Positions 17,066 through 64,000 of a stretch of 64,000 nucleotides of DNA are shown here, piece after piece. The stretch covers positions 80,160-144,159 of the forward strand of contig JBAZFH010000002.1 of assembly GCA_041653535.1 (NCBI GenBank), in the 5' to 3' direction. This DNA is from Patescibacteria group bacterium. GTDB taxonomy: Bacteria > Patescibacteriota > Patescibacteriia > JACRDY01. Under the pieces are notes generated by a model that did no database searches, was not told the DNA's origin, and worked only from the letters and a program-made list of their open reading frames with translations. A program made the translations under genes and the position numbers. The number at the start of each line of letters is the position of its first letter. The first letter of the stretch is position 1.

Positions 17066-17815
17066 TTACTTTTTTGTTTTTTTATTTTCAACCCAAACCT
17101 TCCTGCCTTTTACGTGGAAAGAGAATCTTTTATTAAGACCGTTTCTTTTTAATGTCCTTTGTATTTCCTTGATGGTGGTTTTTATTTTTTCAATTTTTTG
17201 CCATTCATTATAGTCGTCGGTCAGTAATCCGTTTTTTTGGTCTTTTGGCTCTTGAATTATATTAATTATCTCATTCGTAGAAGTGGCTAAGCCAAAATAG
17301 TCCCAGAGACGTTTTATTAGCCTACCTTGCCTAGTGTTATATTTGGCGACTTTTATATTCCTACTGTCAATATTTAAATAACAAAATTTAATATTCCCTT
17401 CTTTTTTGATAGAAACTTTACTGGTAGTTTTATCATTAGATGGGTATTTTAAATTTTTTATTTGTAAAGAATTTTGATAGGCGGTAGCTTTTGTTTTGTA
17501 TGATTTCTTAAAATTTTTAAATTCATTTTTAAATTTTTGTTCGTTAGTAGAAAATTCGAAATAACCATTAATATCTTCTTCAAGTGGGTATTTAATATTT
17601 TTTATTACCCCCTTCTTCTGCAATATTTGAAAAGCCCAAATTCTTCCTTTGATAAGTTCGGTTAGTTCTACACCCTTTATCCCTTTATTGTATTTATTTG
17701 CTACCCACCCGCCTAGCAATGGTATTTTAATTTTATTTTTCTCGGATACAAAGAAGCTCCTTATTTCTTGCAAGGCATTCCAGACTCTCTCTGTTTCCTT
17801 TCTATCTAAATACAT
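17066..17815 (-). CDS. lysine-rich hypothetical protein (island cargo)
   Basis: 249-aa ORF, no recognised domain. Confidence 0.4.
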   Translation of the reverse strand: MYLDRKETERVWNALQEIRSFFVSEKNKIKIPLLGGWVANKYNKGIKGVELTELIKGRIWAFQILQKKGVIKNIKYPLEEDINGYFEFSTNEQKFKNEFKNFKKSYKTKATAYQNSLQIKNLKYPSNDKTTSKVSIKKEGNIKFCYLNIDSRNIKVAKYNTRQGRLIKRLWDYFGLATSTNEIINIIQEPKDQKNGLLTDDYNEWQKIEKIKTTIKEIQRTLKRNGLNKRFSFHVKGRKVWVENKKTKK

Positions 17816-17974
17816 TAATCTTAATTTTAATCTTAATTTATATTCTTATTTTAGCACTTTTAGTTAGTTCTTTAAAGATGAAAATCAGCCAGAGTTTACC
17901 CGTTATGTATTTATTCAGAAAATGAGCTATAATTAAACTCGCAGTCTTGCTGGAGTATTAAAACATTAAAATGT

Positions 17975-19165
17975 ATGGAAAATCCTATTTTTATACCAAA
18001 ATTAATCCAAAACGAAGCTGGCTTTGTAGATAAAATAAAATTGCCAGCTATTTTAATGGACGCTAATATTGTTGCCTTTTCCCCTAAAATATCCGGCAAG
18101 ATAAGAGCGTCTGCAGATAGTTTTATTATCAATCCGGTCACTAATTTTTTTGTTGAAAATTCATTCATAGGCAAAAAAGCATTTAAGAAGTTGCCTACGG
18201 CTCCAGCTAAGCCCTATAGAGTTGAAGAGCTATTAACAAACGAAAAGTTAAGACGAGATGAATTGGTTTGGAAAAATATTGAGTATCAGATTAACAATAA
18301 AGCTAATATAATTATTATCCCTTACATTTATTCTGACAGCATTAATGATTCCAAATTCGGAATAAATTTAAGTATGATTTCTGACGCTTTAAAATTATTA
18401 AAAGTAAATAAAATAAATATCCCAGCGTATGCCATGATTAACATGGGCTCAAGTGTTTTGAATGATTTTACTGGACTAAATAACTTGATAGAAAGATACC
18501 GTGATGATTTTAATGACAAGATAAATGGTTTTTTTATGATGTTTGACGGCTTTGATTGTAGAAAAGCCGTGGATGATTCATTAATGGGTTTAGCCTATTT
18601 AACATTTTATTTGTCCGAGAATAAAAATACCTTCATTTTAAACCTGGGTGATTTTGGGGATGTATTATGTGCTATAGGTGCAAGGGGATATAGTAGCAGT
18701 TTGGGCGGTGGTGAAATATTTAATGTAGAAAAGCTATCCAAGGAAACTAAGAGTCGAGGCAGAAATCATAAAATTTTCTCTTACGTGCCCGAGGTGTTTG
18801 ATTATTTAAATAATGAATCATTAAGAAAAATTGGTTATAAATGTCCCTGCTCTATTTGCGATAATGGAATACCTAATGGCTGGAATAACGCAAAAGCCCA
18901 TTTTCTAAACAGAAAATTGGAGCGGATGGATAATTTAGCCAATTTAAATCGTGACCAGAGAATTGATTTTATTAAATTAAAAATTGAGCAAGCCGTTGAA
19001 CTAATATCTGTATATAATGCAAATTTTGCATTATCTATAAAGACGGATTTTTTGCTAAGATGGAAGAATGTTTTGGAAAAATCACGCCACTGGTCTTATA
19101 GCAAGCGAGAGACTGAAGCGGTGGATTTAGATAAAATAATTGAAGAAGCTAGAAAAAACAAATGA
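17975..19165 (+). CDS. tRNA-guanine transglycosylase (TGT)-like / DpdA-like protein
   Basis: NGFFMMFDGFDCRKAV resembles the TGT GIDMFDCV catalytic-Asp motif; C-terminal YKCPCSICDNG...AKAHF matches the TGT CxCxxC...H zinc site; N-terminal NPIFIPKL resembles TPxFMPV. Confidence 0.5.
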   Translation: MENPIFIPKLIQNEAGFVDKIKLPAILMDANIVAFSPKISGKIRASADSFIINPVTNFFVENSFIGKKAFKKLPTAPAKPYRVEELLTNEKLRRDELVWKNIEYQINNKANIIIIPYIYSDSINDSKFGINLSMISDALKLLKVNKINIPAYAMINMGSSVLNDFTGLNNLIERYRDDFNDKINGFFMMFDGFDCRKAVDDSLMGLAYLTFYLSENKNTFILNLGDFGDVLCAIGARGYSSSLGGGEIFNVEKLSKETKSRGRNHKIFSYVPEVFDYLNNESLRKIGYKCPCSICDNGIPNGWNNAKAHFLNRKLERMDNLANLNRDQRIDFIKLKIEQAVELISVYNANFALSIKTDFLLRWKNVLEKSRHWSYSKRETEAVDLDKIIEEARKNK

Positions 19166-19608
19166 GAATCGTGCCAGATACAAATTTATTAATTCAAGGA
19201 TTGCTTTTTAGAGGCACAGCTAGAAAAATAATCAACTTGGCTTATGAGAAAAAAGTTGATTTTTATGGTAGTGCGAATTCTTTTAATGAAATAAAAAGAG
19301 TAGTCTACTATTCTCGATTTAAAAAATACCTTGAGAATGAAATATTTTCCCCAGAAAAAATAATGATTTCTTTTAAGTCCCTCATCACCGTTGTTTCTAT
19401 AGACTCAAAATATAAAAATTCAAAATTTGTCGCCGATGATGCAGATGACGATGAGTTTATAAGAATAGCTAAGACAGTACAATCAAAATTTATTATTTCA
19501 AGCGATAAGCATTTAAAGAATATAAAAAAAGTCGACGATATAAGAATCGTCGAGCCAGAAATTTTTTTGAAGATATATCCAACTATATCAGGAAAAACAT
19601 TTTTTTAA
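19162..19608 (+). CDS. PIN-domain nuclease (VapC-like)
   Basis: MRIVPDTNLLI start, acidic DDADDDEF and SSDKHL motifs; start overlaps upstream stop (AAATGA). Confidence 0.65.
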   Translation: MRIVPDTNLLIQGLLFRGTARKIINLAYEKKVDFYGSANSFNEIKRVVYYSRFKKYLENEIFSPEKIMISFKSLITVVSIDSKYKNSKFVADDADDDEFIRIAKTVQSKFIISSDKHLKNIKKVDDIRIVEPEIFLKIYPTISGKTFF

Positions 19609-20259
19609 TTGTTGTTTTCCTAAGATAAACTCAGCGGCTAAATTAAACTTATGCCTATTTAAGGGTCGAGTGGCTTTTACTCGACTTATTTTTTTTGTAT
19701 GCTTATCGGGGTCAAATAAAATTAATCCTATATTATGTTTTTTAAGTAGCTCGCGGTCTACTAGATGACCTCTAGCAGCTGGCATGGCTAGGTATGCTTT
19801 ATTAGCAAAAGATTTATATCTATTGGCTTGCACAAATCCCTTTTTCCAATCTTTAAGTTTGGCTTCAATGGCAATGATTTCTTTAGCGATGGGCATCCAA
19901 CCATTTATCTTGAAATAGTATTTGTTATCAACTTTTTTTATAAAGCCATTATTTTCTAGGGTTTTTAAATATTTATATTTTAGAGTTGCCTTTGGAATAT
20001 TTAGATTTTTAGTTAGGCTGTTTAGGTCAACTTTTTTATTAGCGCCTAGCTCTGGCAAGTAATCAAAAATTTTAAAAAATTCCTCATTTTTTATTTTTTT
20101 GTATTGTTTGTTTTTGTTTCTGATGGCGCACTTATCTGGATTGACTCTAAATAGGACTAAATCTGCAACCCCATAACCAACGCCAACCTCCCTTTTGGTT
20201 AAGAAACCTTCCTTAATGAATTTTTCTTCCAAAAGTTTGACAAATTTTTTTTCTGTCAT
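19588..20259 (-). CDS. PD-(D/E)xK-fold nuclease with inserted winged-helix domain
   Basis: GYGVADLVLF ... IAIEAKLKDWKKGFVQANRY (D...ExK) with a wHTH segment between; converges on the PIN gene with ~20-nt overlap. Confidence 0.5.
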   Translation of the reverse strand: MTEKKFVKLLEEKFIKEGFLTKREVGVGYGVADLVLFRVNPDKCAIRNKNKQYKKIKNEEFFKIFDYLPELGANKKVDLNSLTKNLNIPKATLKYKYLKTLENNGFIKKVDNKYYFKINGWMPIAKEIIAIEAKLKDWKKGFVQANRYKSFANKAYLAMPAARGHLVDRELLKKHNIGLILFDPDKHTKKISRVKATRPLNRHKFNLAAEFILGKQQLKKCFS

Positions 20260-46612: not shown

Positions 46613-47167
46613 TTAGAGAAGTTCAACTTTTACATACTTTACGCCAAAAGCTTTGGCCGCTTCTCGGGTTTTCATCCAGATGTCCATTCTCTGGGTATAG
46701 CGGGCGTTCATTCTGTCTTGAACGGTAAAGACGCGGTCACCGAATAATTCCGGCATACGGATTTCTGAACCAAAAGGGAGAAAGTTGGCAGCAACCACGT
46801 TTTCTTGGTTGTTTTCACAAAGGTTAAAGCCATTTGCGGTAATACACGGGGTGCTGTCACATTGATCAACGGTGCTGGAATAAGCAGTAATAGTGATCCA
46901 AATGGTTTTTTTAGCTTCTTTGTCCATAGCCATAGGTAAAGACTTACTATTAAGATCAACTTTTGCTTCCGGAAAACGAAGGTCGGTTGTTGCAGTAGTT
47001 CCTTCTATTTCAGAATAGTTTTGATTTTCAAGGCTTTGAGCTAAAGTTATCTGAGGAAACATAAATTCTACCAAGAAAATAGCTAAAACCGTCATTTCCA
47101 GCCATTTACAGTTTAAATGCTTGGCTAATTTTAGGGAATTTTTTACAAGTTTCTTCAAATTATGCAT
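46613..47167 (-). CDS. 3D-domain protein (MltA/RlpA-like cell-wall-binding)
   Basis: ITAYSSTVDQCDSTPCITANG...LPFGSEIRMPE...DRMNARY 3D-domain signature; signal peptide. Confidence 0.7.
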   Translation of the reverse strand: MHNLKKLVKNSLKLAKHLNCKWLEMTVLAIFLVEFMFPQITLAQSLENQNYSEIEGTTATTDLRFPEAKVDLNSKSLPMAMDKEAKKTIWITITAYSSTVDQCDSTPCITANGFNLCENNQENVVAANFLPFGSEIRMPELFGDRVFTVQDRMNARYTQRMDIWMKTREAAKAFGVKYVKVELL

Positions 47168-48708: not shown

Positions 48709-49302
48709 ATGCTTCAATATCTTATTTTTATAGCCGCTATCGTTCAATTGATGGGATCTCTCTTGTATGTTAAAGAAACTCTTAAAGGTAAAAATAAGCC
48801 AAACAAAATAACCTGGCTAATCTGGTCATTGGCTCCTTTTATCGGCACTGCCGCAGCTATGAGTAACGGAGTGGGTTGGGCGGTGTTGCCTGTTTTTATG
48901 TCGGGGTTTGGCCCATTTTTAATATTTATATCATCTTTTTATAATCCGCAATCTTATTGGAAGCTAGGGTTTTTTGATTATGTTTGTGGGGCGCTAGCTA
49001 TTCTTGCTTTAGTCTTGTGGGCAATAACAAAGCAGCCGATAGCGGCTATATTATTAGCGATAACCAGTGATGTTTTGGCGGCCATACCAACGGTTATAAA
49101 AACTTGGCGGTATCCAGAAACCGAAACCGTACAGCCCTACATTACCAGTTTGTTTGGTGCTCTGACCGGGTTTTTTGCTATCAAGGTTTGGATATTATCA
49201 GCCTATGCTTTTATCACCTACCTAGCTCTGCTAGATAGCTTTGTTGTGATTATGTATTACTATCGTTTAAAAAAGAAGGCTTCTTATGCACAGAATCAGT
49301 AA
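48709..49302 (+). CDS. membrane hypothetical protein
   Basis: 197-aa ORF with 5-6 TM helices. Confidence 0.45.
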   Translation: MLQYLIFIAAIVQLMGSLLYVKETLKGKNKPNKITWLIWSLAPFIGTAAAMSNGVGWAVLPVFMSGFGPFLIFISSFYNPQSYWKLGFFDYVCGALAILALVLWAITKQPIAAILLAITSDVLAAIPTVIKTWRYPETETVQPYITSLFGALTGFFAIKVWILSAYAFITYLALLDSFVVIMYYYRLKKKASYAQNQ

Positions 49303-49942
49303 GTATAAAATCACCAGCAAAAATATTGATTCGACGGCGGGTCGCGTGCTTAGCGACAAAGATTTTCTAAAAGTAATGTCGGAGTACGAAAAGACTTTAG
49401 TTGTTCCAGATAAAGGAAAAAAGGGAGTTATTCTTTGTCCAGTCGGGCAGGTGGGTGCGGGTAAAACTACGGTGGTAAAGCCGCTGGCCAAAAAGCTTGG
49501 TTTGTTGCGAATCTCTATGGATGAGATCCGCCGGATATTACTGCGCGATGGATTTAACTTAGTGCGAACCAAAGAAATGTTTTTGCAGTTGATGCTTAAG
49601 TATTTGGATCGTGGCTATGATTTTGTTGTTGATGCGGATTGTTCGCGAGATGTGAGTTTGATAAAAAAGATTGCCAAGGATTACGGCAAAAAAGTCATCT
49701 GGATCCACGTGAAGCCGCCGGAAAAGTATATTTTAAACAAACTAAAAAATTATAAACACTCTTGGCTTTTCAAAGATTCGGCTGAAGCGATCGCTTGCTA
49801 CCGCGCTCTCAAAAATATCCGTCGTGGTGTAGAAAAGAGAATAAAGTTTTTTTATACTTTCGATCCGTCAAAACCGGATCTAAATAAACAGGTTGAAAGA
49901 TTTTTAGTAAAATTGAATAAAGAGTCGACCGTGGGTCGATAG
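49286..49942 (+). CDS. P-loop NTPase / kinase-family protein
   Basis: ILCPVGQVGAGKTTV Walker A and DADCS Walker B-like motif. Confidence 0.5.
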   Translation: MHRISKYKITSKNIDSTAGRVLSDKDFLKVMSEYEKTLVVPDKGKKGVILCPVGQVGAGKTTVVKPLAKKLGLLRISMDEIRRILLRDGFNLVRTKEMFLQLMLKYLDRGYDFVVDADCSRDVSLIKKIAKDYGKKVIWIHVKPPEKYILNKLKNYKHSWLFKDSAEAIACYRALKNIRRGVEKRIKFFYTFDPSKPDLNKQVERFLVKLNKESTVGR

Positions 49943-51641: not shown

Positions 51642-52337
51642 GAGTTTTTAATAAAAGCTCTAGAAAAATTTTAGGTTTTTTTAATGAAAGCCCAAAAAAA
51701 CATTATACGAGGGCAAGGTTTTTACGCCCTGCCAATAAAAGATCAAATAGAAATAGGCGATTAACCACTATAAAGTGGTGGTTTCTATCACACTTCGATT
51801 GTCAACGACCTTTTTCGTTTTTTCTAAATTTAGCTAACGAAAAAACAGTGCCGGCCAAATCAGCTCCCCCACTTCCTACGCCATTTTTTATAAATCTGGG
51901 TAGAAAGTTGAGCCGTTATTTTCACTCCTCTAAGGCTCTGGAGTGAAAAGTGGGGGATACTCAGCCATCACTGTTTTTTCACTACTTATCACTCCTGCTA
52001 ACAAGCGGGGGGACAGTATAGGTCCAAAATTGAATTGTTATGTATTTTGGAGGAACTTTTTAACCTTAAAATTTAGGTGGTGTTATTATATATCATCCAT
52101 AAATGTTGTCAAGGGGAGAACGAGGGATGGAGAAAAGGATTTCTTGGATATATATATATTCTGTATCCGGCACCATGTTTTCTCGGTTTTCTTAATCTTT
52201 TTGACTTTTAGTGCTAATTTTACTATATTAACCCGTGTGGGATAAAACCGCTACGCCTAGTAGGTCTGGCGACCCGCACTTTGACAATCCTAATCTACTG
52301 CTCTGAAAGTCGGAGCAACGGAAAAAAGGAGAGGAAA

Positions 52338-53228
52338 ATGGATCAAAAGAAGAGGCTACGTAGTTTTGGCGTTCTGATTTTATACAACCCTTGGACCGGC
52401 AAGCAAAACGAGTTGATTGAACTGAACGATAAAGCCTGGGAAAAAGTAAATGACAAAGATTGTTTTACTTTTTCCGTGTATGGTTCTTGCGATGAGAATT
52501 GGTCTCAACAAGAAAGCCATGGTCGTTCTTTGTTCACCATCGTCATCGACAACAAAAACGACAAATCTTCGTTAAGGGATCCCGAAGAGGTTCTTAATAA
52601 CCTCGATACTATTGTCGGATTGATGAGCAAATATCGTTTCTTTGAAAACGATATCGGCACCAAGGTGGTCAAGGAGTTTGTTTCTTTGGTTATTCCTGTG
52701 TTTGGTAGCGCGGTGAAGCGTTGGCTTAAAGCCGGCATTGACGATATTAAGGATGATGAAGTTAGTGACCTTTATGGTTTGGCTGTCGTCCTGCGGAACA
52801 TTTTAGAACTTCATCAGGAAAGAAATACCGGTGGGTTAGTTGCAACTAAAAAAGCGATCAACGCCATCGAAATGTTTTTCCGTGGCATCTCGGAGGAAGT
52901 CAAAAAAATGTTGGAAGCGGAGCCGGTCGGATTGGTTATGCGGGTTCGCGGCGAGGAAAAACAAAATTCCAAGCCTCCACGAAAATTGCAACTCGGTGAT
53001 CAAATGTATTGGAATCAAATGAGCCGAAAGATTGGTTTTAGACGTGGTGATGACCGACTGTGTCTTGATTCTGACGACGATGACAATATTACCATTCCTG
53101 TCAGTATACAGGAAGAGGAAGAGTTTTATCGTTTGGCGCGGATGATCGCCTCAACTCATCGTTTGAAGGTGAATATTATTCCGCAAAATTTGCCGTGGTA
53201 TTTTGTGGTTGAGTTCGTCGCGTCATAA
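52338..53228 (+). CDS. hypothetical protein
   Basis: start chosen at the Met after RBS aaaaaggagaggaaaATG (track ORF begins at 52281); no family recognised. Confidence 0.45.
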   Translation: MDQKKRLRSFGVLILYNPWTGKQNELIELNDKAWEKVNDKDCFTFSVYGSCDENWSQQESHGRSLFTIVIDNKNDKSSLRDPEEVLNNLDTIVGLMSKYRFFENDIGTKVVKEFVSLVIPVFGSAVKRWLKAGIDDIKDDEVSDLYGLAVVLRNILELHQERNTGGLVATKKAINAIEMFFRGISEEVKKMLEAEPVGLVMRVRGEEKQNSKPPRKLQLGDQMYWNQMSRKIGFRRGDDRLCLDSDDDDNITIPVSIQEEEEFYRLARMIASTHRLKVNIIPQNLPWYFVVEFVAS

Positions 53229-53441: not shown

Positions 53442-54095
53442 TTATTTTTTGCTTATCCCTTTTCGCCACTCGGCGATTTTTTTGTGGTCACCGGAAAGGA
53501 GGATTTTTGGCACACGCCATTTTTGTTTGCCGGCAGTAAAAACTCCCGGGCGAGTGTAATGAGGATATTCTTTGTAGTTTTTGTCGCCAGAAAAGGTTTC
53601 TTCTTTCGTCGATTCGTGTTTACCTAGCACACCGGGGATCAGTCGTGTCGTTGCTTCGATCACAGTCATAGCTGGTATCTCTCCGCCGGATAGGACATAG
53701 TCGCCAGTTGAGATTCTTTCATCAACTAGTTTTTTGATTCTTTCATCAAATCCTTCATAGCGGCCGCAGAGCATTATTATTTGATCGTAGGTCAAAAACT
53801 TTTGCGCCATCTTTTGGTCAAACTTTTTTCCGGCTGGGTCAAACATTATGACGTGTGTTTTTTCGGCGCGTTTAATCTTTTTTAAAGTCTTATAAAAAGG
53901 CTCAACCATCAGTAGCATTCCCGGACCGCCACCATAAGGTCGATCGTCGACAGTATGATGTCGATCGGCAGTAACCTCGCGAAGATTGTGGATCCGAATT
54001 TTCACCTTCTTTTTTTTCTGGGCGATCTTAAGAATCGACTCGTTGATATAAGAATCGAAGATACGGGGAAATATTGTGATAATATCGAAAAGCAT
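53442..54095 (-). CDS. trmD: tRNA (guanine37-N1)-methyltransferase
   Basis: MLFDIITIFPRIF...RPYGGGPGMLL...LCGRYEGFDER TrmD signature. Confidence 0.92.
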   Translation of the reverse strand: MLFDIITIFPRIFDSYINESILKIAQKKKKVKIRIHNLREVTADRHHTVDDRPYGGGPGMLLMVEPFYKTLKKIKRAEKTHVIMFDPAGKKFDQKMAQKFLTYDQIIMLCGRYEGFDERIKKLVDERISTGDYVLSGGEIPAMTVIEATTRLIPGVLGKHESTKEETFSGDKNYKEYPHYTRPGVFTAGKQKWRVPKILLSGDHKKIAEWRKGISKK

Positions 54096-54099
54096 AAAT

Positions 54100-54152
54100 A
54101 GGATGATAAGAGGTTAGGAGGGTAGGATGTTAGGATGTTAGGAGGGTAGGTG
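54100..54152. repeat. low-complexity TAGGATG/GGTAGG tract (left arm; also abuts the trmD start)
   Basis: ggatgataagaggttaggagggtaggatgttaggatgttaggagggtaggtg; inverted partner at 54604-54650. Confidence 0.55.
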
Positions 54153-54245
54153 AAATAGTTTAAAAATATTTAATAATTTTTTTTAGATCTATTTAATCTA
54201 CCATTAGCTATATTCTAGACGCTTTAACTAATAACTGCAAATTCT

Positions 54246-54605
54246 ATGACAACCAAATCGTTTCGTGATTTAATCGTCTGGCAAAAAAGCTTCGAGCTAA
54301 CTAAAGAAATCTATCAATTAACCAAATTATTCCCAAAAGACGAGCTATTTGGCTTAACCTCTCAGATTAAGAGAGCGACCGTTTCTGTCCCCTCCAACAT
54401 CGCTGAAGGGTGCGAAAGAGGCTATAAGCAAGAATTGCTTAGGTTTTTATTGATTGCCCTCGGTTCTGCCGGCGAATTAACAACTCAATTATTGATTGCT
54501 AGAGATTTGAAAATGGCAGAAAAAAAATATTTTATAAAATCCGAAGGGCTACTATTAGAAACGACTAAATTATTACATTGTTTTATCCGCAAGCTTAAAT
54601 CTTAA
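54246..54605 (+). CDS. four-helix-bundle protein (TIGR02436; 23S rRNA IVS protein family), second copy
   Basis: FPKDELFGLTSQIKRATVSVPSNIAEGCER signature. Confidence 0.8.
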   Translation: MTTKSFRDLIVWQKSFELTKEIYQLTKLFPKDELFGLTSQIKRATVSVPSNIAEGCERGYKQELLRFLLIALGSAGELTTQLLIARDLKMAEKKYFIKSEGLLLETTKLLHCFIRKLKS

Positions 54606-54650
54606 CATCCTATCCTTATATCCTCCTAACATCCTATCCTCCTATCTTCC
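54604..54650. repeat. right arm (CATCCTA tract) of the inverted repeat flanking the four-helix-bundle gene
   Basis: aacatcctatccttatatcctcctaacatcctatcctcctatcttcc. Confidence 0.55.
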
Positions 54651-54711
54651 TGTAAAAAACAAAAACCGCCGATTTTTCAACCGACGGTTTTAGTATCTAA
54701 AAGTTCAAAAT

Positions 54712-55074
54712 TTAGATTCTCAGATTGTCAACGTCAGAAGTGTCAATATCGACATGATCATTACGATCGTTGCGATTGTCGCTTCTGCGAACGTGGGTAG
54801 AACCCTCTGGTTCGTTGATTTTCAAGTTAACGCGAGCGTTGTTTTTTGCACCGACAATTTTGAGAAGAGTGCGGATCGCTCTAGCAGTTTGACCCTGGCG
54901 ACCGATAACATAGCCCATATCGGCTGGGTTGATGGACAGGGTGATAAGAACACCGCGTTCATCGATTGTGCGCACGGTCTTGACGTCTTCCGGGTGTGAT
55001 ACGATTGATTTGACCACATCCTCGACAAACTTTTGATCGAGTTCCATAGTTTCTTCATTTACTTTATTAAACAA
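54712..55074 (-). CDS. KH-domain RNA-binding protein (YlqC/UPF0109-like)
   Basis: VIGRQGQTARAIRTLLKIV GxxG KH motif; genomic context of rpsP and trmD. Confidence 0.7.
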   Translation of the reverse strand: MFNKVNEETMELDQKFVEDVVKSIVSHPEDVKTVRTIDERGVLITLSINPADMGYVIGRQGQTARAIRTLLKIVGAKNNARVNLKINEPEGSTHVRRSDNRNDRNDHVDIDTSDVDNLRI

Positions 55075-55229
55075 CTCGGTTAGTTACCCAAAAGGGACTT
55101 AACCGTAATTAGCTATCATTATAGCAGATAGATCCATTTTGTCAATAATTTAAGGTAAAAATGTTTAAATTTACTTGATTTTTTTCTTTAAATATGCTAA
55201 AATTTAAAAAGATAAAATAAATTATTTTT

Positions 55230-56927
55230 ATGCCAAATAAAGAGAATAATTCCCTTTTTAGACCAGTAGGAAAAGAGAAAAAAAGGACAGCCGAGCAAGA
55301 AGTTGCCTTAGAGGTTTTGTTGGAGTTTTTACTTGTAAAACATGCTCATAAAGTCAATGAGGGAAGCAAAGGTGTTATTTATCACCTCAATACTACCGAA
55401 GTGGCGGCTGACATTATGGCTTCTTTGGAAAAAACAGATACCAGGCTAGAGTCAGAGGAGGCTCTAAAAGTTTTGAAAATATACAATCCAGGAGAAGGGG
55501 TGGAAGAGTTTGCTATGCAGAGTATGGCTTACGAGATAGTTGAAACAGCGAGGCAAATGGGTATGACTGATTTGGCGTCGGTTCCCAAGCCAATACTTTT
55601 TAAAAAACTAAAAATAAAGTCAGAGGATCAAAAGATGTTGGAAGGTGACGGTATAGAGTTTGATGATGATGGTGATGTGGAAATGATAGTAATGGATTTT
55701 ATTCACGGAGAGGATCTAGCGACTATTTATTATAAAGCAGTGGTCTGGGATCGACTACAAAAAGAATACCACGCAAAAGGAGCAAGTCCCGACAGCCCAG
55801 AGTATCAGACAGCAAAGCAGGCTTTTGACGATATTTGTCGTAATGGTTTTGATCGGATCAGCCAAGAAGCCACCGCCAATCTTTTTAATCAGACCAGAGC
55901 GCTCGATTCCAGTGGTGTAGAAAGAGAAAACACCAAAAGGCTCTGGGATAAATTGCGTGAGATAAAATTTTCTTTATCTGGTGATATTCCGCGACAGATA
56001 GAGCGGACTATTCGGCTTTTTGAAGCCTGCGGTTTTGAATACCTCGATGGTCATCAGAGAAATTTTATGGTTTCTGGTGATATCCGTTCTTTGGGCGGAC
56101 CGGACGCACCGCAGACATCTATTATTGACTACGGCAAAGCGGTAAAAAGAAATCAGCCCATATCTACTATGCCTGATAGATACAAAGATCAGGTGATGGG
56201 GCAAGAAGTTTCTTATCGTGATCCGCATAGTATCGTGACAGAGATAAATATGATCAACAAGGTAATCACGGCTAGTCCGGAATCAAATAAACAAGAAAGA
56301 ATAAAAGAAGTCAGAGGTCTGATTGATACGGAAAAGAAAAGCGCTAGACACAAAAATTTGCTAGCCGCTATCAGTGCCCAAGGAACCGAAAAGTCAGTGC
56401 CGGCTATTGAGCAATTAGCAAGAAAAGCACATCCGGACAAAGATTATGGGGTTGGTTTGTGTACCGCAGTTTTGTCTTTGATAGAAAGTGGCGAACTGTC
56501 GAAAGCAGAATCTGTTGCTTATCTGCAGGATGTTTTGGAAGAAACAACGATAAAAGAAATAATTGGCTCAGCTTTTTTACAAGGCAAAACCAGGGAAGAT
56601 CTGGTTGTTGAAATGCAAAAGATAGAGCAAAAAGAAAAGAAGGCGGTAAAGTCCGGTAAAGAATTGTCGGAAAAAAGTAAAAAAATGAAACAAGTTTTAA
56701 ATAAAGTCTTGCCATATCTGGAAGAAATAAAAGCCGAGGTTGATGATTTGCGAGGCGTGCCGGGACAACTAACTACTGAGGTTAAAAACAACTTTAGGGT
56801 GATTGGTCAGTTCTTGACGCTACTTGATTCTGGTGACACCCAAGCAATCGAAAGACAGCATATTTTTTCATTGCAGGATAGAGAAGTGATTGAGCAAGTA
56901 GCAAAAAAGTTTTTGTCGATAACTTAA
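55230..56927 (+). CDS. atypical protein-kinase-like fold protein with C-terminal helical extension
   Basis: glycine-loop-like EGSKGVIY; candidate lysine in LKVLKI; hinge IVMDFIHGEDL; catalytic-loop-like LDGHQRNFMV; DFG-like IIDYGKA. Confidence 0.45.
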   Translation: MPNKENNSLFRPVGKEKKRTAEQEVALEVLLEFLLVKHAHKVNEGSKGVIYHLNTTEVAADIMASLEKTDTRLESEEALKVLKIYNPGEGVEEFAMQSMAYEIVETARQMGMTDLASVPKPILFKKLKIKSEDQKMLEGDGIEFDDDGDVEMIVMDFIHGEDLATIYYKAVVWDRLQKEYHAKGASPDSPEYQTAKQAFDDICRNGFDRISQEATANLFNQTRALDSSGVERENTKRLWDKLREIKFSLSGDIPRQIERTIRLFEACGFEYLDGHQRNFMVSGDIRSLGGPDAPQTSIIDYGKAVKRNQPISTMPDRYKDQVMGQEVSYRDPHSIVTEINMINKVITASPESNKQERIKEVRGLIDTEKKSARHKNLLAAISAQGTEKSVPAIEQLARKAHPDKDYGVGLCTAVLSLIESGELSKAESVAYLQDVLEETTIKEIIGSAFLQGKTREDLVVEMQKIEQKEKKAVKSGKELSEKSKKMKQVLNKVLPYLEEIKAEVDDLRGVPGQLTTEVKNNFRVIGQFLTLLDSGDTQAIERQHIFSLQDREVIEQVAKKFLSIT

Positions 56928-56957
56928 AAATATCTCTGTTTTTTAGATAAAAAAGAA

Positions 56958-56990
56958 AACCGCTCGCCTAGGCGAACGGTTTTTGATTTG
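56958..56990. terminator. hairpin terminator
   Basis: aaccgctcgcctaggcgaacggttttt. Confidence 0.5.
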
Positions 56991-57377
56991 GATTTAATCC
57001 AGGATTTCTATTGGCGACCGACCAATAGTCTTGCCGCCTTTGCCTTTCCACTGCAGTTTGTTTCCTTCACAGGAGACACAAACGACTAACCCTCGCTCTT
57101 TGGCCTTTTTTTTCAGTAAATCGAGTTGTTTTTTTTGGGCAGTGGTCAGGACAATTCTTTTTTTGGACTCCTTTTTTTTCTTGATTTTTTGCATGTTCAT
57201 GATGTTTTCCCTCTCTTGACCCCATTAATCCAAATAAAAAATATTGAGCTAAGGTATATTAGGATAAAGATAATAATTTGTCAAGGTAATGACAAGAATT
57301 GACTAGATGCTATTTTGATAAAAATAAAAACCGGCAACCTCGATGAGGCTGCCGGTATGGATGTTTGTGTCCAGAGG

Positions 57378-58037
57378 TTATTTTTTGGTTTTTTGTTCGA
57401 ATACCGACCAGGCGAAAATTTGCGCTAGGTCGTCCTGCTCTACCGGTTCCAGAAAGCTTTGTTCAAGCCAAGCCCTTGTCGTAGCAAGATCTGTCTCGAG
57501 ATTTTTTGCTACCGGCCGGACAAAGGTGTGGCGCTCCAATGCTTCTCGGAAGATAGTGATCACTCCGAGCAGTCGATGAACGATCTGCATCAAGCCGCTC
57601 GCGCGTTGACTTAATTTGCAAATCATTTCGTTCTTTTCCGTGACCGTTTTTGTGAGCTGCTCATTACGAGTCAGTTGACTCGCGAGTTGCTCCTTCAATT
57701 CGGCGTACGTCGGCCCACCATCTTGGGGCTTGTCCCAACTTGCGCCGGGGATCGCCGCGCCGGAACGGATGTCGAGCACCAGCTCGGCCATGGTTTTCAG
57801 CTCTTCGGGCTTGCAAGCTCCTTCGATGGTAAACTCAAAGTAGCTCACCGCCGCCTTGCCGCTGGTGTGTCCGATTTCCAGCGACACTTCCAGTTTGACC
57901 CCGTCTTTTTGGTAGATGCCGCGCTGGCGACAGCCGCCGCTAAGCAGACTGGTTTCGGTCCATTTGATTCTGACCGAAGCACTCATAACCGCCGCCAGCA
58001 GCTCTTCCGGCACTCGACCTTCGAGTATATCTAGCAA
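57378..58037 (-). CDS. GC-rich hypothetical protein (TTG start)
   Basis: 219-aa ORF with GC about 50% against ~38% background; preceded by a 28-aa ORF with a good RBS. Confidence 0.45.
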   Translation of the reverse strand: MLDILEGRVPEELLAAVMSASVRIKWTETSLLSGGCRQRGIYQKDGVKLEVSLEIGHTSGKAAVSYFEFTIEGACKPEELKTMAELVLDIRSGAAIPGASWDKPQDGGPTYAELKEQLASQLTRNEQLTKTVTEKNEMICKLSQRASGLMQIVHRLLGVITIFREALERHTFVRPVAKNLETDLATTRAWLEQSFLEPVEQDDLAQIFAWSVFEQKTKK

Positions 58038-58340
58038 CTTGAGGTCGACGTGATAAGTCTCGCCTTGATTAAATTGTCAAAGGCGAATTCCCGCAATTTC
58101 TTTCTTGTCCTTATTGCCGGGAACTTCTTTTGCTTGGGTAGAGTCAACAAACAAGCGAATAACCATGGTACACTTCCTTTCTGCCAACTTTTGGTCCGGT
58201 GGGTCGGTGGTCCGCCCATCCGAAGTTGGTCAGTAAATTGGGAACGATCAATTCCTCACACTATGTGAGAGAATACTAAACAATATCATATTTTATAAAT
58301 ATTGTCAATAGTAGCTCGTTACCAATGCTTATAAATAGCA

Positions 58341-58369
58341 AAAACCCCTATATTTAGGGGTTTTTGATA
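58341..58369. terminator. bidirectional terminator downstream of rpsP
   Basis: aaaaacccctatatttaggggttttt. Confidence 0.6.
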
Positions 58370-58391
58370 GGAGTAGTGTGGAAATAGTTTT

Positions 58392-58802
58392 TTAGGCAGT
58401 AGCAGCTGGTTCTTCTGGTTTAACTTCTGGAGCTGAAGCGGCTTCAGCTGGTGCAGCAGGCGCTTCTGGGGCAGCCTCTGGAGTAGCAGTAGTAGCAGGC
58501 TTTGGAGCGGCTTCAGCTGGTTTCTCGGTCTTTACTAAACGAAAGGCTTTCACCTTTTTACCTTCGACAATTTTTTGGTCAACCAAAAGATTGTGAACCG
58601 TTGGAGTGGGTTGGGCGCCTTTACTTAGCCAATATTTGATTCTTTCAGTATTAAACTGGATAGTTTTAGGATTGGTTCGTGGATTATAAGAACCGAGATA
58701 CTCGATAGCCTTGCCTAGATTGTCTTTGGCACGGTCAAAAATAGCTAAACGGTAAGTTGGACGTTTTTTCGCGCCAAATCTGGCTAAACGTATTCTAATC
58801 AT
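58392..58802 (-). CDS. rpsP: 30S ribosomal protein S16 (with Ala/Pro-rich C-terminal extension)
   Basis: MIRIRLARFGAKKRPTYRLAIFD typical S16. Confidence 0.9.
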   Translation of the reverse strand: MIRIRLARFGAKKRPTYRLAIFDRAKDNLGKAIEYLGSYNPRTNPKTIQFNTERIKYWLSKGAQPTPTVHNLLVDQKIVEGKKVKAFRLVKTEKPAEAAPKPATTATPEAAPEAPAAPAEAASAPEVKPEEPAATA

Positions 58803-59047
58803 AGTATAAAATAAAGGGTTTTATTTAATAGTCACGGTTGAGCACAATGACGGTAGGAATAGAATAACAAAACGGCTTAATTTAGTCAAGGACGTAAAGT
58901 AGGGGGTGTGGCATCTTGTCAAAAGCGTATTTTAATCATGTGTTAGACATTTCGTATCTTGTTTATAACTTTTTGAAATATTGACCTAAGCGGTATGCGG
59001 GCGGATAATTTATTAATAAATGGTAATTTTTAATTTTACGAAAAGAT

Positions 59048-59341
59048 ATGGATTTTCCCGAAAGCCAGAAGAGTTCTATTGCTAATAGCTCGACGCTAAA
59101 AAAAGTAATGTCCAAAGACGCAGCGTCTTTAATCGCTGAAATCGATAATTTGCGTACTAAGATAGACGCGGCAAAGGTTTTTCTAGCGGAGAATGAAAAT
59201 ATCGATCCGGGTGTGATTAATGTTACCGAAGCGGAAATCTCCCGTTGTCAGGAGCGAATATATTTTTTGGAGCGAGAGGTGGAAAAGTTTGACCGTGATA
59301 GCGGGCTGAAGAAAAACCAAAAAAATAATCAGCAAGATTGA
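59048..59341 (+). CDS. hypothetical coiled-coil protein
   Basis: 97-aa ORF; terminator at 59363-59396. Confidence 0.35.
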   Translation: MDFPESQKSSIANSSTLKKVMSKDAASLIAEIDNLRTKIDAAKVFLAENENIDPGVINVTEAEISRCQERIYFLEREVEKFDRDSGLKKNQKNNQQD

Positions 59342-59455: not shown

Positions 59456-61729
59456 TTATTTTGCCCATTGTTCACCTTCTTCCAGTTTCACTGAAAGTAA
59501 TTTTGAGATTCCGTCATCACCCATGGTGACACCATATAAAACATCTGCCCGACGCATGCTGGCGCGATTATGGGTAACTACTATAAATTGGGTTTGCGCT
59601 GCTAATTTTTCCAAAATAGCCGCTAGCCGTTCGGAGTTGGCTTCGTCAAGAGCCGCATCGACTTCATCGAGTACAACGAACGGAGATGGATTGCAGGCAA
59701 TAATAGCACAAATTAAAGCAATAGAAGTCATTGCTCTCTCACCACCGGAAAGAGTGTTGAGACTGGCTATTTTTTTGCCTGGAGGACAGGCCTTGATATC
59801 TACTCCGCCATATTCGTATTCAACGTTGGTTTTCTTATTATTTATTTTCACTTCTTGTTCGTTTTCGGTTTCCTGTTCATCGTCGTCATCTTTTGGTTTT
59901 ACTTCAAACATTATTTTTTCCAGAGAAGCGCGACCGCCGGCAAAAAGAATAGTAAAGTATTCCCCAAATTTTTCATTAATATTTTTGAAAGTTAGATCAA
60001 AGCGCTTGTGAATGTCTTCATCAAGTTCTTTTATTACTTTTCTAAGAGAGTCGATAGCTTTTATTAAATCGTCATATTGCGTCTGCAAAAATTCAAAGCG
60101 TTCTTTAATTTCTTCATATTCTTTGAGGGATTCCTCGTCCAGACCGCCGATGAGTTCGAGTTGATGCTTAACACGCTGGATTTTTTCGTAGTTTTCAGCC
60201 ACTTCGCTTTTTGGCAGCTCGGTTCCTTGGTTGCGGATTTCTGTTCTCAGTTCTTCAACAGCGACTTCGCGTTCAATCTCGTTTTCCAGATCTTCCTTAC
60301 GGGTTTCTAGTTTCGCCAGCTCTACTTTGATGTCGTTGAGTTCTATAGAAATAGTATTGATTTCGGTTTGTTTGCCGGAAAATTGTCGCTGCAATTCGAA
60401 AAACTTACCCTTTTTTTGTTCTTGAGATTTGTTATGGTCGGTTATTTCCGTTTGCACTGTTTGTAATTCCTTTTCTATCGCGTCAATTTCGCTGTTTACC
60501 AGTTCCAATGTTTTAATCAGCTCGTCATCAATTTCAATTTCTTCTTCATTAGGTTGTTTTACTTTTTTGAGCAATTTTTTGAGTCGATCGATTACCGTTG
60601 TCGTTTTTTCTTTGGCGTGACCAAGGTGTGACAGCTCTGTTATCTGATCAAGGTGATCTAGCAGTTGGCTGTGCAAATCAAGCAGTGCTTCTATTTCTCG
60701 CGCCATTTCTGTCGCAGAAATTGGGATGAATTCTCTTTTAGCTTCTTGTTTGGCAACATTGATTTTATGTTGCAGCGAAAGTTGTTTTTCCCGCAATGCG
60801 TTTTTTTTATCGAGCGTAGCGCTAAACTTTTTTTGCAAAGCAGCAAAAATTTCCTGACCTGATTCTTCTTGCTCTAGGGAATCAAGCTGTCTTTGGATGG
60901 CAGCGATTTCTTTTTGTTCTATTTCTATTTTTTTATTTAGTGTCAAAAATTGTTCATGATAGTTTTTCCATTGGTGAGAAATTTCGAAATATAGCGCGCC
61001 GTAATATTGTTTTTGTAATCCGTGCAATTCTTGTTCCACCTCTTCGCGTTTTTCCAAACGTTTGACCATGCGGCCGAGTGAGCGGTAGCGCGGACCAAGC
61101 TCGCCCAGGGTGATTTCGGTTTGTTTGAGATTATCCTCGGTTTTTTCCAGTCGAGAGATGGTTTGGTCTTTTTTGATCTGGTATTCTTTTACTCCGGCTG
61201 CCTCATCAAAAAATTCTTTACGCTCGGCTTGCGAGGCGACCAGAAAATGGTCAACCATGCCTTGTCCGATAACACTGTAAGTGCGTTGACCAAAGTTGGC
61301 TTTAGCAAGAAGTATTTGGATATCTGCGAGACGAACCTTTGTTTTATTAAGTAAATATTCTGATTCGCCGTCGCGGTATAGCCGGCGGGTGATTACCAGC
61401 TCCGAATAGTCTATTGCCGCTGAACCGTCTTCATTGTTTAAATAAAGAGAAACCTCTGCCATACCCATACGCGCTTTGCGATCTGAACCAAAAAATATGA
61501 CGTCTTCTGATTTTTTCCCGCGCAAAGTTTTCATTGACTGTTCACCGAGTACCCAGCGGATGGCGTCGGCGATATTGGACTTACCGCTGCCATTGGGACC
61601 GACGACGGCAGTAATGCCTTTACCCTTGCCGTTGGCCGAAGGGAATTCTAAAATCGTCCGCCCAGCGAACGATTTAAAACCTTGGATTTCTAGTTTTTGC
61701 AGATACATAAAAGCTGTTTTATTATACAA
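59456..61729 (-). CDS. smc: SMC-family chromosome-segregation ATPase (short, apparently hinge-less, 757 aa)
   Basis: N-terminal GFKSF...VVGPNGSGKSNIADAIRWVLGEQS Walker A; coiled coil; C-terminal LSGGERAMTSIAL and VLDEVDAALD; no hinge motif seen. Confidence 0.8.
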   Translation of the reverse strand: MYNKTAFMYLQKLEIQGFKSFAGRTILEFPSANGKGKGITAVVGPNGSGKSNIADAIRWVLGEQSMKTLRGKKSEDVIFFGSDRKARMGMAEVSLYLNNEDGSAAIDYSELVITRRLYRDGESEYLLNKTKVRLADIQILLAKANFGQRTYSVIGQGMVDHFLVASQAERKEFFDEAAGVKEYQIKKDQTISRLEKTEDNLKQTEITLGELGPRYRSLGRMVKRLEKREEVEQELHGLQKQYYGALYFEISHQWKNYHEQFLTLNKKIEIEQKEIAAIQRQLDSLEQEESGQEIFAALQKKFSATLDKKNALREKQLSLQHKINVAKQEAKREFIPISATEMAREIEALLDLHSQLLDHLDQITELSHLGHAKEKTTTVIDRLKKLLKKVKQPNEEEIEIDDELIKTLELVNSEIDAIEKELQTVQTEITDHNKSQEQKKGKFFELQRQFSGKQTEINTISIELNDIKVELAKLETRKEDLENEIEREVAVEELRTEIRNQGTELPKSEVAENYEKIQRVKHQLELIGGLDEESLKEYEEIKERFEFLQTQYDDLIKAIDSLRKVIKELDEDIHKRFDLTFKNINEKFGEYFTILFAGGRASLEKIMFEVKPKDDDDEQETENEQEVKINNKKTNVEYEYGGVDIKACPPGKKIASLNTLSGGERAMTSIALICAIIACNPSPFVVLDEVDAALDEANSERLAAILEKLAAQTQFIVVTHNRASMRRADVLYGVTMGDDGISKLLSVKLEEGEQWAK

Positions 61730-61881: not shown

Positions 61882-62949
61882 ATGACAACGGATAAAATCT
61901 TCAGAAGGCTTTCGAAATTATTACCCGCCTCTCATGAAGACCTGGTTTCTTTAGCGCAGAGGTGGAAAAAAAGCATGGTACGACAAGAAATAAAGAAAAC
62001 CGTGCGTAACAAAGGAGAGGGAAGCTTTTCCATGGCTATAAGGCATGTAGATGTTTTATGGTCAGAAAATACTAAAACTGCGGCTGCAAAGAAGGCTGCC
62101 GCGCAAGACATTCATTCTTGTTATCCTAATATCGGATTAGTGTTCAGGGTTTTGTTTTGTTTCGCGGCTTTATGTATTATACCTATTGCGATATATTTAG
62201 AGTGGAGCTTGAAGGTATCCCTGATCTCTGTTTTTTCGTTTGGATTTTTTGCTTTCGTGCAAAGACCTATTGCCTATCTTTTTGAGTGGCGTGCTGCCAG
62301 GAAGGCATTGCTGCAGGAAAGACTTGATGCCGCCGGCGACGTGGAGGACGTCGTCGTCGATTATGCAAAAGATATAATCAGTAAAGAAGAATTTTTGATG
62401 ATTGGCGCAGAAAGCCGATATCAGAAATTGTTTGATAAGTTGCAAAGCGCTCGCAACCAAATCGGTGCTCTTCTTGAAGAATTACGTTTGGTTGTGCAAA
62501 CCGGAGAGACTTATTGTGGCAGTCGCGTGGAGCAAGCGATCAAGCGCGCCGAGGCTATTATTTCCAAGCTCGATGACAATATCAATGATTTACAAAAATG
62601 GCGCGACGTAGTGGCAGCGCATTTTTCGGATTGTTTGACGCGAGCGAAAAAAATGTCCGGACCGCTCCACGAATATCGCTTGCTCAAACAAGTCGATAAG
62701 CTGGAGCTTGTCGGCGAACGCTTAGCTTTTGATACCGCTGAGTTTATTTCCAGCTCAAGTGCAGAGCTGGTTCAGCGGCTTAGCACTGCGGAAGGGTTGA
62801 TCATGCAGACGTATGACGATGTTAATGTTCGTAATCTTGTTGAGAGCACGAAGTTACATTTGGTGAATATCGAAACTTTTCCGATGTTGGAAATCGACGG
62901 TGCGGTGAACCGTATCGTTGAAAGCGGCAAAAAGATTAACTTCTCATGA
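61882..62949 (+). CDS. membrane hypothetical protein
   Basis: 355-aa ORF with RBS aaaggagatatagATG, two central TM helices and helical C-terminus. Confidence 0.45.
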   Translation: MTTDKIFRRLSKLLPASHEDLVSLAQRWKKSMVRQEIKKTVRNKGEGSFSMAIRHVDVLWSENTKTAAAKKAAAQDIHSCYPNIGLVFRVLFCFAALCIIPIAIYLEWSLKVSLISVFSFGFFAFVQRPIAYLFEWRAARKALLQERLDAAGDVEDVVVDYAKDIISKEEFLMIGAESRYQKLFDKLQSARNQIGALLEELRLVVQTGETYCGSRVEQAIKRAEAIISKLDDNINDLQKWRDVVAAHFSDCLTRAKKMSGPLHEYRLLKQVDKLELVGERLAFDTAEFISSSSAELVQRLSTAEGLIMQTYDDVNVRNLVESTKLHLVNIETFPMLEIDGAVNRIVESGKKINFS

Positions 62950-63163
62950 ATTATTTACTCCCTGATAGTTATTGTCAGGGAGTTTTTTTATTGGTGATTA
63001 ATAGCCGGAGGGCATTAATTAGTGTCCTGATTACTAGATTATCGATCTTCGGTTAATAAATTATTGACAAAAATCATTATATTTGATAAACATAGTTAAT
63101 GTTCATTACATATAAATTAAGCGATTTAATAATCGTTTTTGCCGTAAAAGGAGGAATGGTAAA

Positions 63164-64000
63164 ATGAAAGTGGCTATCATTATCAGTAGGGAGCTGCGAG
63201 AGGATGTCGAGGCGTTTTTTGCCAGGCTTTCGCCACCACCGGACGACATTTTGGAGGTATTTGGTTTTTCTCTTGATAACATGCCGACCGAGCAGGAAGT
63301 TCGGAGAGCTTACGGCGAGATGGTAAAAAAATATCATCCCGATGGCTTTTTCCAGTTTCAAGATAAAGAAATTTTGGAGAAGACCGACTATATTTTTCGG
63401 ATTATTCGGGGTGCTTACGAGCGTCTCGATACCATGCAGAAGATCATTGATTATCAGGAACAAGCCGCGGCGGGTGCTGTCAAAAACGCAAAAAGTCAGC
63501 GACTGCAGCGAGACTTGCAAGGTATTATTGCCTTTGACAAGGCAATGGGATGTTTGAATTATAAGGACTACCGCAGCGCTGTTGAGTTTTTCAAAATCGC
63601 TTTGGACATCAATCCGTCCGATCAGGATCGGATGAGCTATTACGCTTGGGCGTTATTTAAACTGTCTTTGCAAATCAAAGAAGATGCAGCTCGCGCTGTT
63701 GCTGAAGGAAGAAAGATTGACAACAAAGAAGATTTCGTCGAGATGCAGGCGAGGTCGCGGGATCTTCTAAATCAGGCAGTGGAAAGAAATAAGAAAACCG
63801 CATCCATCGCTTATTTATTCCTGGGGCATATTTATTTGTCCGAGGGACTGATCGAGATGGCGGAGACTAATTACCACCTGGCTTTAGCGCGCAATCCGAA
63901 TTTAGCGGAGGCGATTCGCGTTTTGCGCAATATCGACATCAAGCGCCGTCAAAAAGAAGCCGAAGCCCTGGAAGCTTCAAAGGGTATGTTTGTTCGTTGG
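63164..64000 (+). CDS. J-domain (DnaJ-like) protein with TPR repeats, 3' truncated by the window edge
   Basis: EVRRAYGEMVKKYHPDGF (HPD motif); TPR-like repeats (YKDYRSAVEFFKIALDINPSD...); RBS aaaggaggaatggtaaaATG; open to window end. Confidence 0.75.
   Translation, partial: MKVAIIISRELREDVEAFFARLSPPPDDILEVFGFSLDNMPTEQEVRRAYGEMVKKYHPDGFFQFQDKEILEKTDYIFRIIRGAYERLDTMQKIIDYQEQAAAGAVKNAKSQRLQRDLQGIIAFDKAMGCLNYKDYRSAVEFFKIALDINPSDQDRMSYYAWALFKLSLQIKEDAARAVAEGRKIDNKEDFVEMQARSRDLLNQAVERNKKTASIAYLFLGHIYLSEGLIEMAETNYHLALARNPNLAEAIRVLRNIDIKRRQKEAEALEASKGMFVRW

Follow-up and report, generated by a model that had tools for sequence, protein, structure and literature searches.

What is a kinase-like gene doing inside a cluster of translation genes in a bacterium of the Patescibacteria? 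This question is raised by a 64,000-nt stretch of a Patescibacteria group bacterium (assembly GCA_041653535.1, contig JBAZFH010000002.1, positions 80,160 to 144,159 of the forward strand; hereafter the window, meaning the whole stretch at its full length), in which a gene at 55230-56927 (+) encoding a protein of 565 amino acids (aa) lies between rpsP and the KH-domain gene of the rpsP-KH-trmD cluster. On balance, and with a fair degree of probability, the encoded protein can be read as a soluble cytoplasmic, probably active phosphotransferase of the protein-kinase-like (PKL) fold, belonging to a very divergent family so far found in Patescibacteria only and working in a two-gene switch with a microprotein encoded next to it. 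The genomes of Patescibacteria are tiny and contain few regulators that can be recognised, and for the majority of the proteins specific to their lineages no function is known. Approximately 350 protein clusters, mostly annotated as hypothetical, can now be assigned to the kinase-like superfamily; their active site is intact, and the predicted structure is a confident one.

The 565-aa protein and its family

A word-index homology search conducted with the 565-aa protein, or with the family alignment, returned the query itself only. An exhaustive phmmer search of 1.84 billion representatives revealed 350 relatives at E ≤ 1e-3, including 239 at E ≤ 1e-10 and 21 at E ≤ 1e-30. As the indexed search had presented the protein as an orphan and the exhaustive search recovered hundreds of relatives, orphan calls made with an index should be regarded as provisional. 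The relatives, which form about 350 clusters at 50% identity, were typically about 447 aa long (median) and aligned to residues 15-340 or 15-440 of the window protein. All named members originated from metagenome-assembled genomes of Patescibacteria (Magasanikbacteria, Uhrbacteria, Parcubacteria SG8_24 and 'Patescibacteria group'), and their automatic labels were hypothetical protein, 'protein kinase domain-containing', phosphotransferase (one member, NCBI/PGAP) and Bud32 (one member, JGI). Literature searches revealed no description of this family, and an oral-microbiome PKL survey and a bacterial serine/threonine kinase atlas were without mention of Patescibacteria.

Three regions could be distinguished in the window protein: a kinase core (residues ~20-345, nt 55287-56264, +), a helical domain conserved in the family (residues ~346-450, nt 56265-56579, +) and a C-terminal helical extension (residues ~451-565, nt 56580-56924, +), which makes it the longest of 150 aligned family members. 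Residue conservation was counted in this 150-sequence alignment, and Pfam tallies were taken from 52 members. Three residues were invariant in all 150 sequences, namely K80 (the beta3 Lys, within LKVLKI), E93 (the alphaC Glu) and D273 (the catalytic Asp). G45, K83, M155, R277, N278 and D300 were each conserved in 149, followed by G160 (148), H275 and D162 (147 each) and G48 (131). The conserved positions correspond to a Gly loop N-E-G-x-x-G, the A-x-K Lys, the alphaC Glu, a hinge M-D-x-x-x-G-x-D, a catalytic loop D273-x-H-x-R-N278 and the DFG Asp. The residue following D300 in the DFG-type motif was Phe in 128 and Tyr in 21 of the sequences, the window protein itself having DYG. The full PKL catalytic set (beta3 Lys, alphaC Glu, catalytic Asp, D+5 Asn and DFG Asp) was present in the window protein. 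Since every catalytic residue is retained, the protein is expected to be an active enzyme and not a pseudokinase, and it probably performs ATP-dependent phosphotransfer. An earlier interpretation of the same DNA made without database searches (the sequence-only reading) had already picked out the Gly loop, the hinge, the Lys of LKVLKI, the Asp of DGHQRN and DYG as kinase motifs, and the positions that it named were conserved in at least 147 of the 150 sequences.

Comparison of the family profile with the PDB revealed kinases only among the 60 matches listed (EGFR, 2.8e-8; HIPK3, 7.8e-8; ULK1, 1e-6), and the catalytic loop and the DFG motif were aligned in these matches. Matches of the single 565-aa protein to LOV/PAS 'sensory box' proteins of the PDB in a phmmer search were rejected as chance. 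Structure prediction from the single sequence with AlphaFold gave a predicted local distance difference test score (pLDDT) of 38, and AlphaFold2 supplied with the 150-sequence alignment gave a pLDDT of 83.8 with a predicted template modelling score (pTM) of 0.73. The latter model consisted of five N-lobe strands, helix alphaC, a sheet carrying the catalytic loop and DFG motif, a helical C-lobe, a helical insertion of about 85 aa after the hinge (~residues 163-250) and an all-helical C-terminal region. The PDB matches listed by Foldseek for this model were all kinases, with probabilities up to 1.0, and the BFVD matches likewise; they were weak, with E values of ~1e-3 to 3e-3 and a TM-score of ~0.4. 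The predicted structure thus shows a bilobal kinase fold followed by the long helical tail that had been anticipated. With the fold found in the model and the motifs conserved among homologs, the kinase-like interpretation of the gene stands.

The family shares with the Hanks-type kinases (PF00069/PF07714; PknB, ULK1 and EGFR) the bilobal fold, the Gly-rich loop, the A-x-K Lys, the alphaC Glu, the catalytic Asp, the D+5 Asn and the DFG-type Asp, and in the EGFR alignment the family Arg at D+4 falls where the tyrosine kinases have the Arg of their HRDLAARN loop. In contrast to these kinases, the window protein remains below the Pfam threshold, its catalytic loop is not of the HRDxKxxN type (His, not Lys, is present at D+2), and no activation segment terminated by APE was seen, the APE motif being absent after DFG in the family consensus. 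The family furthermore adds the helical insertion, which separates the hinge from alphaE, and, at the C-terminus, a helical domain of at least 100 aa. Some of these features recall Haspin, the eukaryotic histone H3 kinase, which is an atypical Ser/Thr kinase with His at D+2 (HRDLHWGN), a non-canonical DFG and no APE. Sequence identity to Haspin (PDB 9wgw and 3dlz) was 14-15%, however, and no accessory domains, partner or context were shared, and the resemblance may reflect convergent loss of the same elements.

The convergent microprotein partner

A small ORF encoding 68 aa is present at 56994-57200 (-), convergent to the PKL gene. It had been overlooked when the insert was described as two genes; the PKL gene and the GC-rich ORF (57378-58037, -) were both there, with this conserved kinase partner between them. 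The contigs of three homologs each contained an ORF of 61-65 aa, convergent to the kinase gene and right past its end, which aligned with the window ORF. Of the 2510 ORFs of 35 loci, 19 were matched by a hidden Markov model (HMM) built from these four sequences, 14 of them distinct once duplicate contigs had been removed, and all 19 were convergent and located -3 to +79 bp from the kinase stop; the spacing in the window was 67 bp. When the window was left out and the HMM built from the 13 other loci, the 68-aa ORF was recovered at E = 8.3e-13 among the 885 ORFs of the window, where the next best reached 0.7. The microprotein HMM gave no match in 14,504 ORFs of 1.06 Mb of control loci. Upon addition of four further contexts, including locus L118, a significant partner was present in 15 of 28 distinct evaluable loci, always in convergent orientation. 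Five of the remaining loci had an ORF that resembled the partner weakly and matched it in size and position (in one case co-directional), and eight had none.

The PKL gene and the convergent gene for a microprotein of about 60 aa form a conserved two-gene module, and the window shows it in its defining layout, in which a convergent partner-family ORF of 55-80 aa is found -3 to +79 bp past the stop of a PKL gene of the family. The kinases of these loci were mostly 26-44% identical, with one closer pair (L090/L094) at 65%. The other neighbours all differed between the kinase loci, and rpsP, KH and trmD were near none of the other kinase genes. The persistence of the pair despite divergence of the kinases to ~30% identity is the strongest functional clue at hand, from which we infer that the microprotein is the cognate substrate or regulator of the kinase. 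The two proteins would then act as a small intracellular phospho-signalling switch. Kinase and microprotein constitute a concrete and testable pair, in which either phosphorylation or binding can be looked for.

The microprotein has a Lys-rich N-terminus in the window, while the family is not uniformly basic, with pI values of 4.9-11. A conserved R-G-[LIV] lies between the N-terminal stretch (LTxAQKK...) and a run of alternating hydrophobic positions (V.V/L..), and our guess from this pattern is a helix followed by beta-strands. Matches of the microprotein profile to the N-terminus of SETD8 (2e-3) and to PTH2 (1.7e-3) in searches of the PDB and Pfam were weak and inconsistent, and were rejected as chance. 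A Shine-Dalgarno (SD)-like GAGGG is present upstream of the 68-aa ORF. A regulator with a TrmB-type helix-turn-helix domain adjoins the pair in six loci (L085, 7752-8528; L091, 7601-8365; L092, 7293-8033; L087, 1656-2525; L094, 3238-3736; L116, 7306-8058). The one of L092 is located directly 3' of the kinase gene, and no microprotein was detectable in that locus.

Weighing the possible functions

Several observations weigh against a phosphotransferase switch formed with the microprotein. The 565-aa protein itself matched no Pfam model (neither Pkinase nor APH even at E ≤ 1), no NCBIfam model and no PADLOC model, and directly before the catalytic Asp it has Tyr-Leu (YLDGHQRN) where the family consensus has His-Arg. 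By sequence, the APH family of small-molecule kinases reaches scores equal to those of Pkinase. In 8 to 13 of the 28 loci the partner is absent or escaped detection, and convergent rather than co-directional transcription is unusual for a pair of an enzyme and its substrate or regulator.

The APH scores bear on a reading in which the protein is a small-molecule kinase of the APH/choline-kinase type (PF01636), acting on a sugar, lipid head group, antibiotic or metabolite, with the microprotein as an unrelated or regulatory neighbour; this is rather unlikely. Sub-threshold APH matches were seen in 38 of the 52 members and their best value (3.9e-10) exceeded that of Pkinase (3e-8), which was matched weakly in 43; Kdo and ABC1 were matched as well, and one member is the 'phosphotransferase' named by NCBI. 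The family shares the catalytic D-x-x-x-x-N loop and a helical elaboration of the C-lobe with APH, it has no APE or classical activation segment, its helical insertion follows the hinge, and genes of sugar metabolism (PfkB, FBP aldolase, NTP_transferase and TrmB regulators) were nearby in several loci. However, the Gly loop is well conserved in the family (see G45 and G48 above), the APH matches remained below the Pfam threshold, APH and choline kinases were not the closest structural neighbours, APH(2'') appearing first at Foldseek rank 29 with a probability of 0.60, and the sole neighbour conserved across all clades is a protein and not a metabolic gene. A further possibility is a toxin-antitoxin-like or anti-phage conflict module, with the kinase as the toxin and the small protein as the component that neutralises or triggers it. 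The pair does look like a mobile two-gene unit, found in a different genomic context in each genome and, in the window, at an insertion hot spot, and some members matched PD-T4-6, mad6, Stk2 and Pfam TCAD9 weakly. Yet the PADLOC matches of these relatives spanned only the ~50-aa catalytic-loop/DFG stretch that is common to all kinases, the two genes converge and each has a promoter-like site of its own, a layout that is not typical of toxin-antitoxin operons, and the PKL gene was apparently single copy in the window. No relatives of the protein were found in phage, plasmid and viral-contig collections. In HipA toxin systems, a HipA_C domain is combined with an antitoxin gene of the same orientation; the Pfam matches included no HipA-type domain, and the partner is convergent. 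A conflict module is accordingly considered quite improbable.

The remaining two readings concern where such a kinase might act. A Rio/Bud32-like ATPase would work on the translation apparatus (the ribosome or tRNA-modification complexes) and use ATP as a conformational switch instead of signalling, and it is an unlikely explanation. With RIO/Bud32 (PF01163) the family appears to share a compact core that lacks a classical activation segment, a helix precedes beta1 in the predicted structure (H21-38), the RIO1 Pfam domain was matched in three members (best 3e-6), and one member is the Bud32 labelled by JGI. A tsaD-tsaE pair, which in bacteria corresponds to the Bud32 partner Kae1, precedes the gene in loci L093 (4290-7263), L095 (361-3520) and L100 (1072-4220) of one clade, tsaE ending 4-6 nt before it; as these kinases are only 31-37% identical, the synteny must be old. 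TGT/QueA, YchF, S6/S18 or tRNA synthetase genes were near the gene in other loci, as rpsP, KhpA and trmD are in the window. Such neighbours, however, are expected by chance in the small, translation-gene-rich genomes of Patescibacteria, no tsaD or tsaE is near the window gene, Haspin, VRK3, Sky1 and Bub1 score as high as Rio, RIO1 was matched weakly in just those 3 of 52 members, and the family is larger (~447 aa median, 565 aa in the window) with its insertion and tail. Because translation genes are dense in these genomes, we give little weight to a translation-machinery role deduced from the Rio/Bud32 structural similarity and the tsaD-tsaE synteny. A more specific variant, equally doubtful, is a Patescibacteria-specific switch in which a Rio/Bud32-like ATP-driven factor would act on the translation or tRNA-modification machinery, with the microprotein as adaptor or pseudosubstrate. 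If this is true, archaeal/eukaryotic Rio or KEOPS-Bud32 function would have an equivalent in bacteria, and the coupling of the gene's translation to that of tsaD-tsaE, seen in one deep clade, would be explained together with its landing among rpsP, khpA and trmD. The sequence-only reading had instead suggested a host-directed effector, that is a kinase secreted by an episymbiont, and this we regard as very improbable. It is favoured by a kinase fold of the eukaryotic kind in bacteria that are presumed to live on the cells of a host, by the LegK4 effector of Legionella, which the profile matched weakly (5.9e-4), and by a type-IV-pilin-like gene in the wider neighbourhood and PilB-like ATPases in other loci. 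Against it, a hydrophobicity scan revealed no transmembrane-like segment in 149 of the 150 members and a hydrophobic N-terminal stretch in only 4. The LegK4 match was no better than those to hundreds of other kinases, the gene has the mean GC content of the window (0.41), the family is ancient and widely distributed in Patescibacteria (~30% pairwise identity) rather than patchy, and the conserved partner is encoded alongside it in the same genome.

The PilB/GspE-like ATPase gene is located downstream of the kinase gene in L093, L095, L099 and L100 and upstream of it in L106, the kinases of these five loci being ~27-37% identical. In L106, tsaD and tsaE are also nearby on the opposite strand. 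The sole TsaE-like tblastn match of the window (49352-49504) was rejected, as it belongs to a generic P-loop protein with AAA_33/zeta-toxin-like matches, which is encoded at 49286-49942, a few kb from the rpsP-KH-trmD cluster. A gene with a T4SS_pilin domain (PF18895; 46019-46498) lies within a few kb of the cluster as well.

The interrupted rpsP-KH-trmD cluster

In the order of the window, the region comprises trmD (53442-54095, -; PF01746, 2.3e-56), a gene of the 23S-IVP family (54246-54605, +; PF05635, 2.2e-36), the KhpA-like KH-domain gene (54712-55074, -; PF13083, 3.3e-22), the two genes of the module, the GC-rich ORF, rpsP encoding S16 (58392-58802, -; PF00886, 2.1e-21) and the SMC gene (59456-61729, -). 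The KH gene and rpsP flank the insert, and the PKL gene is divergent from KH, as had been described before. The gap between rpsP and KH was 3318 bp in the window compared to 159-1498 bp in 12 related loci. All 12 retained the order smc-rpsP-KH-trmD, and none of them encoded a homolog of the 565-aa protein, the 68-aa protein or the GC-rich ORF. The PKL module and, separately, the GC-rich ORF appear to have landed in the rpsP-KH gap of this genome. No flanking direct or inverted repeats that would mark the 3.3-kb insert as a mobile element were found, and no link between the GC-rich ORF and the kinase module could be found.

In most bacteria these genes belong to the operon rpsP-(KH)-rimM-trmD-rplS, of which the order and strand of rpsP, KH and trmD are likewise kept in the window. 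The absence of rimM, pointed out earlier as a peculiarity of the locus, could be reproduced in that no RimM-like ORF was found in the window cluster; it is not special to this genome. The gap between KH and trmD was at most 311 bp in 7 of the 12 relatives, and the larger gaps contained inositol monophosphatase, glycosyltransferase, cytidylyltransferase and unknown proteins, with RimM not among them. As the clusters of the relatives lack rimM as well, its absence from this position is a trait of the lineage, and the unrelated genes found in the relatives indicate that the rpsP-KH and KH-trmD gaps are both recurrent insertion sites. In the window both are filled, the first by the PKL module and the GC-rich ORF and the second by the 23S-IVP cassette. 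A cluster commonly taken as a stable operon is thus, in this lineage, a repeated insertion site without rimM.

The signals around the genes suggest that the former operon is now split into units with their own promoter and terminator, in contrast to the operon of most bacteria. Consensus scans across 53442-59341 revealed 20 promoter-like sites (10.8 expected) and 13 terminator-like sites (5.4 expected), and each gene of the region had its own promoter-like site and intrinsic-terminator hairpin. The KH promoter-like site (55118-55145, -) matched the -35/-10 consensus at 12 of 12 positions with an extended TG, and a terminator was predicted by the terminator scan at 54662-54691 (-). Back to back with this promoter is the candidate PKL promoter TTGATT-17-TAAAAT with TG (55175-55203, +), and the 68-aa gene is preceded by TTGACA-17-TAATAT (57256-57284, -), both identified by consensus match only. 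Between the convergent stops of the PKL and 68-aa genes lies a GC-rich palindromic hairpin (56956-56983; inverted repeat I16) with a 12-pair stem flanked by an A-run and a T-run, which is probably a bidirectional intrinsic terminator. The terminator scan placed the rpsP terminator at 58339-58366 (-).

The GC-rich ORF had been considered a gene of foreign composition. Its GC content is indeed elevated (0.54, or 0.60/0.40/0.61 at the three codon positions), with a third-position value (GC3) 2.3 standard deviations above the window mean of 0.42 (sd 0.085). The stretch contains a 300-bp GC peak of 0.593, and its 600-bp GC of 0.55 is the highest in the window. The deviation is nevertheless modest, and a GC content of ~0.54 is also reached around 5.7 kb, around 44 kb and within the 16S gene. 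The codon-position pattern looks like that of coding sequence. The start is uncertain, giving products of 219 aa (TTG start), 211 aa (NCBI) or 202 aa (Logan). No relatives were found by the indexed search (which returned the ORF itself only), in Pfam, NCBIfam, PHROGs, PADLOC and the PDB, or among phages, plasmids and viral contigs. Its orphan status is provisional, because the indexed search missed the whole kinase family. A search of 54-59.5 kb with Rfam revealed no RNA family, and the GC-rich stretch matches no described one.

Three-frame translation revealed an in-frame upstream continuation of the GC-rich ORF (58038-58166, -), which consists of an ATG at 58166 with a strong SD sequence GGAAAGGAAG, 29 codons, a TGA at 58077-58079 and 13 sense codons. 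The window uses the standard bacterial code, given that TGA serves as an ordinary stop in 6 of its 43 large ORFs. The upstream TGA was present in both the window and an independent Logan assembly (L120), which was 100% identical to the window across 11.3 kb. The continuation may represent an N-terminus interrupted by a nonsense codon, a separate leader ORF or peptide, or a case of read-through. The GC-rich ORF has a structured 119-nt leader at 58167-58285 (z = -2.64), ahead of which the consensus scan found a promoter-like site (TTGACA-17-TATTGT with TG; 58280-58308, -), and a terminator-like hairpin with 12 pairs, 8 of them GC, and a T-run lies past the ORF (57330-57356, -).

Some further features of the region and the window could be observed. 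The 23S-IVP-family gene is enclosed by 46-nt inverted arms of tandem 8-nt units TAGGAKGK (54098-54154 and 54594-54651), and these arms pair in the minimum free energy fold of 54090-54660, closing off the ORF (z = -4.28). The element resembles an rRNA intervening-sequence cassette, yet it is located outside any rRNA, between the KH terminator and the start codon of trmD. TrmD of the window was at most 60% identical to that of any species representative, the nearest belonging to Magasanikiibacteriota. Past the Pfam S16 domain (residues 8-66), rpsP encodes a C-terminal low-complexity tail of ~50 aa rich in Ala, Pro and Glu (58392-58541, -). ORFs without a Pfam match near the cluster were found at 52281-53228, 59048-59341, 61882-62949, 63077-63520, 48709-49302 and 46613-47167; those of 315 aa and 97 aa also had no NCBIfam or PHROG match and no homolog in 80 related loci. 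One 16S rRNA gene and 12 tRNA genes are located in the window. The four-ORF block at 17066-20259 has a markedly low GC content of 0.28-0.32 and a GC3 of 0.25-0.30, compared to the window mean of 0.41, and is a stronger compositional outlier than the GC-rich ORF, in the opposite direction.

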